From NCBI GenBank assembly GCA_964501755.1, contig CAZCTF010000002.1:1-40311 (forward strand): a stretch of 40,311 bases of DNA, in the 5' to 3' direction. The stretch comes from an uncultured Bdellovibrionales bacterium. Lineage in GTDB: Bacteria; Patescibacteriota; Minisyncoccia; Moranbacterales; UBA1568. The position numbers and the translations under genes were made by a program. Numbering within the stretch: the first letter of the stretch is position 1; the number at the start of each line of letters is the position of its first letter. This document shows positions 31,326 to 33,601 of this stretch, piece by piece. The notes under the pieces were generated by a model, which was given only the letters and a program-made list of their open reading frames with translations, had not been told where the DNA came from and did not search any database.

Positions 31326-32558
31326 ATGGAAACCGAAAACGCTGCTCTTCCGCCTCTGGCTGAGCGGATGCGTCCGAAGCAACTCGCTGATTTCATCGGT
31401 CAAGAGAAGATCCTTGGCGAGGGTTCGTTTTTGCGACATGCGATTCAGGCTGACCAGGTACCATCGCTTCTCTTCTGGGGGCCGCCAGGAAGCGGCAAGA
31501 CGACCTTGGCTCGGCTCATTGCTCTTGAGACGAAATCGCATTTTCTCCAGCTTTCAGCGGTCGAGAGTGGCAAAAAGGAAATCCAGCGTATCGTCGAAGG
31601 GGCGAAAGCAACGGCGCGTCTCGGGGCGCGAACTATCCTTTTCGTCGATGAGATCCACCGCTGGAACAAGTCGCAGCAGGACGCGCTCTTGCCGCATGTC
31701 GAGGATGGGACGATCACGCTCATCGGCGCAACGACGGAGAATCCGAGTTTCGAGGTGAATGCCGCTTTGCTTTCGCGGGCCCGTGTTCTCGTGCTCTCCA
31801 AACATGCCCCGGAGCATATCGAGTCCCTCCTCAAGGCGGCGATTGTGGATGATGAAGTGCTGAAACGGAAGAAAGTCAAAGCCGATCCGTCAGCGCTCCA
31901 TTTCATCGCCGCACTTTCGGGCGGTGATGCTCGAGCGGCCTACAATATTCTCGAGGCGTGTGCGAGTCTGGGAAAGCGAATCACGCCCGAGCTCGTTGAA
32001 GGAGTAGCAGAACGCTCACATCTCCTTTATGACAAGGATGGCGAGGAGCACTACAATATTATTTCCGCGCTTCACAAATCCATGCGTGGCGGCGATGCGG
32101 ATGCCGCGCTCTACTGGCTGGGCCGCATGCTTGAAGCCGGGGAGGATCCACTCTATGTTGCTCGACGACTGGTCCGTTTCGCCTCGGAAGATGTCGGGAT
32201 GGGGAATTCGTTTGCGTTGCCGCAGGCAGTCGCGGCCTATCAAGCGTGCCAGTATATCGGCATGCCGGAGTGTTCGGTGAACCTTGCTCAGGCAGTCGTC
32301 TATCTCGCCCAGTCTAAGAAGTCCAATGCACTGTATACCGCATACGGCCAAGTGAAGGAAGACATTGCGTCCTATCCGAATGAGCTGGTGCCGCTTCATC
32401 TCCGGAATGCTCCGACCGAGCTGATGAAATCCCTCAACTACGGTAAAGGCTACAAGTATACTCCTGATTTTACCAATATAGCCGATGCAGCTCAGGAATA
32501 TCTCCCAGAAAAACTCAAGGGAAAGCAATATCTTGGAAAAAGAAAAACGACGTCCTGA
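31326..32558 (+). CDS. rarA: Replication-associated recombination protein A (AAA+ ATPase)
   Basis: RMRPKQLADFIGQE, Walker A GPPGSGKTTLA, FVDEIHRWNKSQQD, LIGATTENP and HYNIISALHKSMRGGDADAALYWL. Confidence 0.9.
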   Translation: METENAALPPLAERMRPKQLADFIGQEKILGEGSFLRHAIQADQVPSLLFWGPPGSGKTTLARLIALETKSHFLQLSAVESGKKEIQRIVEGAKATARLGARTILFVDEIHRWNKSQQDALLPHVEDGTITLIGATTENPSFEVNAALLSRARVLVLSKHAPEHIESLLKAAIVDDEVLKRKKVKADPSALHFIAALSGGDARAAYNILEACASLGKRITPELVEGVAERSHLLYDKDGEEHYNIISALHKSMRGGDADAALYWLGRMLEAGEDPLYVARRLVRFASEDVGMGNSFALPQAVAAYQACQYIGMPECSVNLAQAVVYLAQSKKSNALYTAYGQVKEDIASYPNELVPLHLRNAPTELMKSLNYGKGYKYTPDFTNIADAAQEYLPEKLKGKQYLGKRKTTS

Positions 32559-32602
32559 ATGAGAGAACGTCGTGAAGTGGGGCGGGTACGCGCGTTGACG
32601 TA

Positions 32603-32833
32603 TCACCAGAGTCGCTCGCTGCACTTCATGATGGTGCGGAGATCGACATCTGGGGTGGCAGAAAGCGTGGCACGACAGCAGCCGTAGTACACGGCGCCTT
32701 TTCTTCGGCACACGTAGCTTCGCTCGTAGCGGTTCTGGGAGCCGCAGTGACCACAAGGGGCATAGGGCGGCTTGGATTCGGCAGCCAACGTTTGCAAGAG
32801 ACGGCGATCGCCTGAATCAGCACCTTCGAACAT
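32603..32833 (-). CDS. Small Cys-rich protein (76 aa), putative zinc ribbon
   Basis: SD GGAGA 7 nt before the ATG. CGHC...C...CC cysteine pattern. No family assigned. Confidence 0.55.
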   Translation of the reverse strand: MFEGADSGDRRLLQTLAAESKPPYAPCGHCGSQNRYERSYVCRRKGAVYYGCCRATLSATPDVDLRTIMKCSERLW

Positions 32834-32870
32834 GGGAGTATCTCCTTTCGGTTGGAAATGAACGGTGACG

Positions 32871-32905
32871 AAAAAGCCGGTCTCCTTCGTTGGGGAGACC
32901 GGCTT
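32871..32905 (-). terminator. Rho-independent terminator inside a 5' leader (attenuator regions 3:4)
   Basis: Minus strand: AAGCCGGTCTCC (32905..32894), 8-nt loop, GGAGACCGGCTT (32885..32874), continuing into TTTTT (32875..32871). It lies 38 nt upstream of the ATG at 32833. Confidence 0.7.
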
Positions 32906-33000
32906 CTTTCTGCACTCGAGACTTTCTACTAGTAGCGCTCAAGAGCAAAAACAAATCGGTCTCCCTTCTCCCAAAAGAAGAAGGCGAATGTCAGACCGAT
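32871..33000 (-). promoter_or_regulatory. Candidate transcription attenuator (alternative hairpins 1:2, 2:3, 3:4)
   Basis: 1:2 pairing is ATCGGTCT (33000..32993) with AGACCGAT (32962..32955), plus inner CCTTCT (32984..32979) with AGAAGG (32969..32964). Region 2 GGGAGACCG (32965..32957) is perfectly complementary to region 3 CGGTCTCCC (32901..32893), which is also the 5' arm of the terminator. Confidence 0.5.
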
Positions 33001-33024
33001 AAACATGGACCGAAATATTTGCAT
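32929..33024 (-). CDS. Leaderless 31-codon Phe-rich small ORF (MQIFRSMFIGLTFAFFFWEKGDRFVFALERY)
   Basis: The ATG lies exactly 6 nt after a TATACT -10 box, the same geometry as two other genes here. 8 of 31 codons are Phe, including FAFFFW. TAG stop at 32931..32929. Too short for the ORF track. Confidence 0.45.
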   Translation of the reverse strand: MQIFRSMFIGLTFAFFFWEKGDRFVFALERY

Positions 33025-33030
33025 AAAAAT

Positions 33031-33060
33031 AGTATATCGGGGGTGTGAGATCGCTGTCAA
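33031..33060 (-). promoter_or_regulatory. Near-consensus sigma70 promoter on minus strand
   Basis: rc reads TTGACA (33060..33055), 18-nt spacer, TATACT (33036..33031). Confidence 0.65.
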
Positions 33061-33110
33061 ATTTCGAGTCTATTCCGAGAAAACACACAGCTGACAGGGG
33101 CTAGATTTTT

Positions 33111-33119
33111 TGCTAAGCT
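33111..33119 (+). promoter_or_regulatory. Extended -10 promoter of bcp
   Basis: TGcTAAGCT, then 8 nt before the ATG at 33128. No SD, so probably leaderless or nearly so. Confidence 0.4.
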
Positions 33120-33127
33120 GTCCCAAT

Positions 33128-33601
33128 ATGAATACTCTACCTATAATCGGGAAACTCGCGCCGGCCTTCAGTCTGACGGATCAGGCGGGGAAACAGCATA
33201 CCCTGAAGCAATATCGAGAGAACTGGATAGTGCTGTATTTTTACCCCAAAGACGATACACCAGGGTGCACAATCGAAGCCTGTAGCTTTCGGGATAATTT
33301 CGAAGCATTGAAAAAAGCTGGGGCGGTGATATTGGGCGTCTCAATTGATCCAGTGAGGAAGCATGCCAAGTTCGTTGAGAAATACGCCTTACCTTTCTCG
33401 CTCCTGTCGGATGAGGGGAAACAAGTCGTCGAATTGTATGGGGTGTGGGGGAAGAAGAAATTTATGGGCCGGGAGTATATGGGGACGAATCGAGTTTCAT
33501 TTTTGATTAATCCCAAGGGCAAGATTGTGAATATCTATGACCCAGTAAAGCCAGTGCGCCATGCCGAAGCCGTGCTTAGTGATATTTTGCGAGCCCATTA
33601 A
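33128..33601 (+). CDS. bcp: Thioredoxin-dependent thiol peroxidase (peroxiredoxin Bcp)
   Basis: APAFSLTDQAGK...VLYFYPKDDTPGCTIEACSFRD carries the peroxidatic and resolving Cys context of Bcp/PrxQ. Confidence 0.9.
   Translation: MNTLPIIGKLAPAFSLTDQAGKQHTLKQYRENWIVLYFYPKDDTPGCTIEACSFRDNFEALKKAGAVILGVSIDPVRKHAKFVEKYALPFSLLSDEGKQVVELYGVWGKKKFMGREYMGTNRVSFLINPKGKIVNIYDPVKPVRHAEAVLSDILRAH

Follow-up and report, generated by a model that had tools for sequence, protein, structure and literature searches.

A candidate ribosome-dependent transcription attenuator with a leaderless, phenylalanine-rich upstream open reading frame in Candidatus Moraniibacteriota

How might a bacterium with a tiny genome and few recognizable regulators, as is the case in the Candidate Phyla Radiation (CPR; Patescibacteria), control the expression of a small gene that has no promoter-like site directly in front of it? 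To our knowledge, almost nothing is known about gene control in this group, and the question is raised by a short unit on the minus strand of contig CAZCTF010000002.1, of which a stretch of 40,311 nt (hereafter, the window) was analyzed and assigned to Candidatus Moraniibacteriota via RarA homologs and homologs of the 76-aa protein described below. The unit sits in a 550-nt gap between rarA (31326–32558, +) and bcp (AhpC/TSA family, ~33128 onward, +) and consists of a promoter, a 31-codon upstream open reading frame (uORF) rich in phenylalanine (Phe), a terminator, and a 76-aa ORF rich in cysteine (Cys). In our assessment, the element probably attenuates transcription in a ribosome-dependent manner by means of a leaderless uORF. 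Conservation in two clades lends good support to the attenuator architecture, which a previous sequence-only reading of the region had proposed: the comparison of eight homologs upholds the promoter, the predicted leaderless ORF, the 1:2, 2:3, and 3:4 pairings, and the terminator. From this sequence evidence we infer translation of the uORF, termination, readthrough, and a Phe signal.

The comparison covers eight distinct leaders (the window, L002 [= L003], L004, L008, L010, L011, L016, and L017), all of which lie in the same rarA–bcp gap of Moraniibacteriota genomes. They were collected with a degenerate DNA pattern, via homologs of the 76-aa protein and a called 32-aa gene (P0008), and from among the neighbors of RarA homologs, and the sequence data behind the relatives include SRR25456183, SRR31594170, ERR12350079, and JGI 3300013121; since L010 ends before the terminator, counts for the terminator and the 2:3 pairing refer to the seven complete homologs. 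The near-consensus promoter claimed at the outset, TTGACA-18-TATACT with an ATG 6 nt later, reads at 33060–33031 and 33024 on the minus strand. Its −35 hexamer (TTGACA, 33055..33060, −) and −10 hexamer (TATACT, 33031..33036, −) are invariant in all eight leaders, while the 17- to 18-nt spacer (18 nt in the window) and the flanks are variable in sequence, and the window promoter is the top sigma-70 match, at 11 of 12 positions, in the 3 kb scanned. The distance from the −10 box to the ATG is 6 nt in the window and 8 nt in the other homologs, with no Shine-Dalgarno (SD) sequence, so that the mRNA is predicted from the promoter to be leaderless or to carry a leader of ≤2 nt. Leaderless expression in the lineage is also supported by the neighboring bcp gene, which has a −10 box 7–8 nt before its ATG and no SD.

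The uORF (32929..33024, −; ATG at 33024–33022, TAG at 32931–32929) comprises 31 codons plus TAG and encodes MQIFRSMFIGLTFAFFFWEKGDRFVFALERY. Conceptual translation confirmed the eight Phe codons claimed previously, i.e., 8 of 31 codons compared with 3.8% in the large ORFs of the window (P ~2e-5), and the Phe share of the peptide across homologs ranges from 18 to 26%. The length of the uORF is 31–33 codons in all eight leaders; a compensating pair of 1-nt indels between the two clades restores its frame, and codons 15–30 contain six synonymous versus two non-synonymous variable sites. Because the ORF is maintained, its frame restored, and its conserved half biased toward synonymous change, the uORF is likely translated. 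The conserved peptide pattern is MQ...MF......FF(F/I)W(E/K)KGDRFVFALER, with a variable N-terminal half and 1–3 variable residues at the end. Specifically, the segment WxKGDRFVFALER is invariant, with synonymous changes only, and Phe is invariant at codons 8, 15, and 16, with other Phe residues at codon 11 or 13 and usually at codon 17. All substitutions in codons 15–30 fall at positions that the fold tolerates (in loops or bulges, at wobble-compatible sites, or in compensated pairs), and for this reason constraint on the peptide is not cleanly separable from constraint on the RNA. The leader peptides had no match in Pfam, NCBIfam, or PADLOC. A PDB profile search with the peptide alignment returned a lone 11-residue match, which was judged to be due to chance.

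The pairing that would exclude the terminator is the one between region 2 and region 3. Region 2 (32949..32965, −) is composed of GGGAGACCG (32965–32957), directed to region 3, and the overlapping GACCGAUUUGUUU (32961–32949), directed to region 1. As the sequence-only reading had stated, GGGAGACCG is a perfect 9-nt complement of CGGTCTCCC (32901–32893) in the 5′ arm of the terminator, a match that was reached by 1 of 3,000 dinucleotide shuffles of the upstream 117 nt. This 2:3 complementarity is kept in all seven complete homologs, with standard pairs in six to seven of the seven at each position; the exceptions are one A–C mismatch (L011) and two U–G wobbles. The intrinsic terminator itself (32871..32905, −) consists of region 3 (AAGCCGGUCUCC), an 8-nt loop, region 4 (GGAGACCGGCUU), and UUUUU, with a hairpin energy of −23.2 kcal/mol. 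Its DNA arms, AAGCCGGTCTCC (32905–32894) and GGAGACCGGCTT (32885–32874), are followed by five T residues and are paired in the minimum free energy (MFE) fold. The terminator is found in all seven complete homologs (−10.8 to −23.3 kcal/mol) and ends in a run of 5–6 U residues in six of them, the run being interrupted in L017. While the terminator was thus described correctly beforehand, the distance from its last T (32871) to the downstream ATG (32833) is 37 nt and not 38 nt.

Region 1, the anti-antiterminator strand, also required a small revision. The earlier proposal placed it within the uORF, in the hairpin ATCGGTCT..CCTTCT/AGAAGG.AGACCGAT. This hairpin is indeed present in the MFE fold of the window and contains the Phe run, but its outer stem ATCGGTCT/AGACCGAT occurs only in this genome: ATCGGTCT (codons 9–11; 32993..33000, −) is a second copy of region 1, not conserved in L002, L004, L008, L010, L011, L016, or L017. 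The conserved partner of AGACCGAT is instead mRNA nt 5–17, AAAUAUUUCGGUC in the window (33008..33020, −), which pairs with GACCGAUUUGUUU. In the MFE fold of nt 1–76, the 5′ end of the mRNA (nt 5–17, e.g., AACAAAUCGGUC) pairs with GAYCGAUUUGUU in 8/8 homologs, which places the conserved region 1 at the extreme 5′ end of the transcript; the shuffle tails of the 1:2 duplex range from 0.001 to 0.37. Within region 1, TCGGTC is conserved at the nucleotide level although the residues it encodes differ between the two clades, (F/Y)-R-S versus I-G-H, a shift in reading that is caused by the compensating indel pair.

Two further hairpins complete the leader. An inner hairpin, CCUUCUUCU-UUU-GGGAGAAGG (32964..32984, −), holds Phe codons 15–17 (32982–32974) and belongs to both alternative folds; 96–97% of its cells are paired over the eight sequences, and the E/K change in the peptide retains a pair (U–G to U–A). 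The middle hairpin (32907..32951, −) carries the stop codon of the uORF in its loop, in agreement with the earlier placement of the stop between regions 2 and 3, and, stacked below 2:3, completes a long antiterminator rod. Its lower stem, UUUUUGC/GCARAAA, is conserved in 8/8 leaders and includes one compensatory pair (A–U in four, G–C in one).

Both states postulated by the sequence-only reading, 1:2 with 3:4 and 2:3, were obtained when full-length and truncated RNAs were folded. The window leader has an MFE of −70.9 kcal/mol (z = −4.86), and none of 200 shuffles was as stable; its 2:3 pairing adds ~−23 kcal/mol to the middle hairpin, compared with ~−13 kcal/mol for 1:2. When the RNA ends just before region 4, the MFE structure is the inner hairpin plus the rod in every homolog (with partial pairing in L011), in which GGGAGAYCG pairs with CGGYCUCCC and is stacked on the middle hairpin that bears the stop codon. 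At full length, the MFE structure is 1:2 plus the middle hairpin plus the terminator in four of seven homologs (the window, L008, L016, and L017); L002 and L004 keep the terminator and pair the 5′ end with the 3′ arm of the middle hairpin, and L011 retains an antiterminator-like fold. On the alignment of the eight sequences, 88.8% of cells are paired in the antiterminator state and 86.8% in the terminator state, as compared with 41–66% in slid controls, those of the 2:3 pairing giving 51–66%. Moreover, a C in region 3 (alignment column 136) meets a G in 2:3 in 7/7 homologs and is mismatched in the terminator in 4/7. This C and the conservation of TCGGTC across reading frames argue for selection on the alternative pairings. 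A break-and-restore pair of changes for 2:3 would replace GGGAGACCG with GGGUGACCG in region 2 and CGGUCUCCC with CGGUCACCC in region 3.

The position at which a ribosome would tip the balance was modeled by masking a 28-nt ribosome footprint at each A-site codon and refolding the RNA. With the A site at codons 2–17, region 2 is free and 2:3 forms, whereas 2:3 is blocked from codon 18 to codons ~28–31, where either region 2 or the middle hairpin lies under the footprint. In L002 and L016, which have mismatch-bearing terminators, the antiterminator wins even at full length with a ribosome in this permissive zone. Phe codons 8, 11 or 13, 15, 16, and usually 17 fall inside the zone, with the 15–17 run ending at its 3′ edge, a placement that would be expected of regulatory codons in this model. 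An arrest peptide acting at the stop codon was set aside, because a ribosome at the stop masks neither region 2 nor region 3 and has no obvious route to antitermination.

In the mechanism we propose, transcription would start at the ATG of the uORF or 2 nt before it, and the nascent RNA could form three pairings: region 1 (nt 5–17) with GACCGAUUUGUU in region 2, GGGAGACCG with region 3, and region 3 with region 4. If no ribosome is present, or if a ribosome has run through to the stop, 1:2 would form first and then the terminator, releasing an RNA of ~155 nt. A ribosome held at codons 2–17 would cover region 1 or part it from region 2, leaving the latter free; 2:3 would then form once region 3 is made, and RNA polymerase would read through into the downstream ORF, which would be translated from its own SD. 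Scarcity of charged tRNA-Phe appears to be the likeliest cause of such a hold-up.

As described in the sequence-only reading, the gene beyond the terminator encodes a 76-aa protein with a CxxC...CC pattern (32603..32833, −) and is preceded by an SD (AGGAG, 32842..32846, −), which is conserved in homologs. The lack of a promoter-like site in the interval from the uORF to the downstream ATG, together with a gap of 35–45 nt between terminator and start in homologs, implies that this ORF must be transcribed through the terminator; its SD is touched by a weak 4-bp hairpin alone. Co-transcription is also in line with the situation in L001, where loss of the −10 box and leader coincides with an altered downstream ORF: the −10 box, uORF, and terminator are gone, and the Cys-rich ORF is kept as a 110-aa form with a changed C-terminus that overlaps rarA. 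The earlier statement that the regulated gene is not an amino acid biosynthesis gene agrees with our searches, since neither the 76-aa protein (an orphan with CxxCG...CC and six Cys, grouped by homolog clusters and its conserved Cys residues) nor its 91-aa and 62-aa counterparts had a Pfam, NCBIfam, or PADLOC match. The 76-aa family contains four close clusters, and P0007 is the sole other credible relative among 1.84 billion representatives. CxxCG and CC, i.e., four Cys residues, are all that is conserved across the family including its distant homologs, and this arrangement suggests a zinc knuckle; the AlphaFold2 model of the 76-aa protein (mean pLDDT of 52) was unusable.

The leader of L016 precedes a 91-aa ORF of the same Cys-rich family, and the leaders of L011 and L017 precede ORFs of 62–69 aa without any Cys (L011:4154–4399, L017:3310–3492, −). 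The L017 ORF retains the N-terminal motif of the Cys-rich family as well as P-x-G-x-x-G-x-QN, and these Cys-free ORFs could have arisen by decay or could represent a novel version of the protein. Both end in LIW..(I/L)W.I.D and are shorter than the Cys-rich forms. In the profile searches, P0005 (1,272 aa; E = 2.6e-14) was rejected since it consists of seven identical 166-aa repeats with a weak 22-residue match in each, and P0006 (3,688 aa) had 12 matched stretches in the representative search. Repeated short, weak matches inflate the scores of both, an artefact of profile searches with short Cys-rich queries. The low Phe content of the downstream proteins (0–2 Phe each) was dropped as an argument, as it is not significant for any of them singly (P of 0.07–0.44).

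Several observations weigh against a Phe-sensing attenuator. At equilibrium, the truncated RNA favors 2:3 even without a ribosome, so that default termination must rely on 1:2 forming first during transcription, that is, on folding kinetics. The small ORF and the complementary segments, whose conservation in relatives the sequence-only reading had proposed to check, are kept; the Phe run, in contrast, is FFI rather than FFF in L016 and L017, and covariation is near nil (one compensatory pair, shuffle controls not exceeded), because the homologs are too similar, which means that the structures rest on conserved pairing potential and not on proof. Phe codons 24 and 26 fall outside the permissive zone, and the downstream targets are orphan proteins of 62–91 aa with no link to Phe. 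As a CPR lineage, the host is not expected to synthesize Phe. Finally, the nucleotide identity of the leader (70–82%; core, 80–94%) is higher than that of rarA (67–78%) and of the downstream ORF (47–54%), a difference that hints at a possible separate function of the leader, although overlapping constraints can explain such high conservation.

Some of these points fit other explanations better. The same attenuator might respond to general translation stress, with the pioneer ribosome slowed at codons 2–17 by antibiotics, starvation, or damaged ribosomes; we regard this as unlikely, though as a possibility to be taken seriously. It would accommodate a permissive zone that is 16 codons wide and not limited to Phe codons, an FFF run that is not invariant, and downstream genes unrelated to Phe, and there is documented precedent for non-biosynthetic genes under the control of uORFs responsive to several ribosome-targeting drugs (PMC12121999, PMC9226507). 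A general sensor, however, gives no reason for a peptide with 18–26% Phe over a 3.8% background or for the invariant Phe codons 8, 15, and 16 inside the permissive zone, and the downstream protein resembles no known resistance or rescue factor in Pfam, NCBIfam, or PADLOC. Decidedly unlikely, in our view, is an autonomous small gene, in which the 31- to 33-aa peptide and/or the ~155-nt RNA would be the functional product, the downstream ORF would be expressed by leaky readthrough, and 2:3 would be no switch. That the 9-nt complement of the terminator arm (1/3,000 by chance) and its 5′-end partner are kept in all lineages would then go unexplained, as would the continued match of region 3 to region 2 in places where its pairing with region 4 has eroded. 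Such a gene would account for a leader conserved above rarA and far above the downstream ORF, for its persistence in L011 and L017 despite their Cys-free downstream ORFs, and for the invariant WxKGDRFVFALER with synonymous changes only. In addition, unpaired third positions vary while the unpaired first and second positions of W18 and R30 are fixed (in a small sample), and attenuator RNAs and leader peptides that act in trans exist (rnTrpL and peTrpL; PMC6614838, PMC7298713). Nevertheless, the substitutions in the conserved half are all tolerated by the fold, so that selection on the peptide is not cleanly separable from selection on the RNA, and the peptide has neither a transmembrane helix nor a family match.

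The membrane-peptide alternative raised by the sequence-only reading, i.e., a type I toxin-like peptide whose translation is curbed by sequestration of the 5′ end and/or an antisense RNA, lost ground and now appears highly improbable. Although the peptide is small, with a hydrophobic N-terminal half and a charged tail, the Kyte-Doolittle mean of the most hydrophobic 19-residue stretch reaches no more than 0.5–1.1 (seven peptides), the longest uncharged run is 8–18 residues, and no segment is of transmembrane grade. The mRNA 5′ end is sequestered in the 1:2 helix, as such a toxin would have it, but no sigma-70-like site antisense to the uORF was found in the window, L011, L016, or L017 by a consensus scan that could miss weak promoters, and the sole second promoter, seen in clade B, points away from the uORF. 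Patchy, accessory occurrence among close relatives would suit a toxin as well; against it stand the fixed chromosomal position of the unit, a pattern more suggestive of inheritance and subsequent losses than of mobility, and the lack of PADLOC, Pfam, or NCBIfam matches.

Returning to the attenuator that we favor, the leader could in addition be more than a cis-acting switch, with the peptide tail W-x-KGDRFVFALER and/or the ~155-nt terminated RNA having its own function; this extension seems unlikely to us. One possibility would be a product acting in trans, like rnTrpL/peTrpL, and another a sequence-specific sensor or arrest peptide. A function of this kind would explain both the conservation of the leader above rarA and its persistence where the downstream ORF lost its Cys motif.

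The element resembles the trpL, pheL-pheA, pheM-pheST, and hisL attenuators in its short 5′ ORF (translated in those systems and probably so here), its mutually exclusive 1:2, 2:3, and 3:4 pairings, and its intrinsic terminator. As in amino acid attenuators, a cluster of codons for a single amino acid is placed such that a stalled ribosome would free region 2. pheL peptides are also short with internal Phe runs (PMC3082878), but the likeness to pheL noted in the sequence-only reading proved to be one of composition: there is no sequence or structure homology to the trpL, pheL, pheM, or hisL leaders, and no Rfam match to them even at E ≤ 10. Specifically, cmscan placed no Rfam family in the window at the gathering threshold, and a scan of 32540–33120 at E ≤ 10 returned only miRNA and small RNA matches, which are spurious. 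In comparison with amino acid leaders, the ORF here is predicted to be leaderless, with region 1 at the very 5′ end, i.e., the landing site of the ribosome; the peptide is twice as long, with an invariant C-terminal half; and the stop codon lies ~25 nt past region 2, within the third hairpin. Moreover, the target is an orphan protein of 62–91 aa in a CPR bacterium and not, as for pheL and pheM, a gene for Phe biosynthesis (pheA) or charging (pheST).

Other precedents share individual features. The mycobacterial "Cys ribulon" (bioRxiv 10.1101/834739) is reported to consist of polycysteine leaderless small ORFs, each likewise forming the first cistron of a polycistronic mRNA, in which ribosomes that pause where codons for a single amino acid are repeated remodel the downstream RNA and raise expression of the following genes. 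The mycobacterial ORFs are reported to unmask a ribosome-binding site and to control cysteine metabolism (10.1101/834739), whereas the present leader has an intrinsic terminator and orphan targets. In the vmlR leader (PMC9226507) and toiL-topAI (PMC12121999), a uORF is coupled to premature termination before a non-biosynthetic gene, and stalling relieves termination, as proposed here. Those leaders control known resistance or toxin-antitoxin genes, and none is reported to be leaderless or Phe-rich. toiL is said to act via Rho. The released short RNA and leader peptide of Sinorhizobium meliloti, rnTrpL and peTrpL (PMC6614838, PMC7298713), have functions of their own that would fit the strong conservation of the leader, but no sequence similarity to them was found here. 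Within the library searched, there was no paper joining Patescibacteria with leader peptides or transcription attenuation, and none joining the CPR with leaderless small ORFs.

We judge that the element appears to work like the trp, phe, and his attenuators and yet belongs to no curated family; what would be new are the leaderless ORF, region 1 at the ribosome landing site, the orphan target, and the CPR host. If the mechanism is as proposed, a textbook principle would gain a lineage, a geometry, and a type of target that are all new for it, a useful but not revolutionary extension. CPR organisms would then read their own translation status, and possibly the amino acid supply of their host, to switch on accessory genes by means of a compact, testable RNA switch, and the orphan CxxCG...CC mini-proteins would be flagged as condition-induced factors. 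If the leader has a function of its own, it would be the first dual-function attenuator described in the CPR.

As for the distribution of the unit, the called gene P0008 was matched with a 43-aa, TTG-extended form of the uORF as the query, and a degenerate pattern scan of metagenomes added L008 and L010; a further match, L009, is a chance one inside a membrane-protein gene. The genome scan had a sole true match, an already known metagenome-assembled genome, and a Mucilaginibacter match in the same scan is spurious, being interrupted by stops. Viral contigs contained no match. The unit is not found in the rarA–bcp gap of L012 (whose RarA is 92% identical to that of the window), L013, L014, L015, or L018, and it thus appears from these gaps to be accessory as a whole, present or absent among close relatives; the stretches concerned are L012:3212–3343, L014:3212–3274, and, for L001, which keeps the Cys-rich ORF, L001:2928–3001. 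Flank alignment of genomes with and without the unit revealed no insertion scars and no target duplications.

Clade B has a second conserved promoter, TTGACA-17-(TG)TACCAT (L011:3916–3944, −; L017:3746–3774, +; L016:4270–4298, +), which is back-to-back with the leader promoter, faces bcp over a spacer of ~500 nt, and has no equivalent in the window. The spacer in L011 carries a 113-aa ORF without an assigned family.

The Pfam-supported large ORFs of the window are all on the plus strand, and the long minus-strand ORFs examined are shadows; on these grounds, the small unit is the sole minus-strand transcription unit evident from the sequence of the window. A terminator-like hairpin with a T run (32573–32547, −), found by sequence scan, ends the 76-aa gene and with it the unit; as an annotated part it spans 32537..32573 (−). 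The convergent gene, rarA, has its stop codon (32556–32558) within the same hairpin (32547–32573), and since no T run follows the hairpin on the plus strand, rarA is left without an obvious intrinsic terminator of its own. On the other side of the gap, bcp is preceded by CTGACA-17-TAAGCT, 8 nt 5′ of its ATG at 33128 (33091–33130, +, with the ATG), and the bcp genes of relatives (L001, L002, L004, L012, and L014) have an extended −10 box, TGnTACAAT, 7–8 nt before the ATG and no SD. The bcp gene itself thus looks leaderless, leaderless mRNAs may be common in the lineage, and translation of bcp probably does not begin at the TTG (33110) that the ORF finder listed. Further along, an M17 leucyl aminopeptidase ORF, with its start as listed (33561), shares 41 nt (33561–33601) with the end of bcp, and its true start probably lies further downstream.

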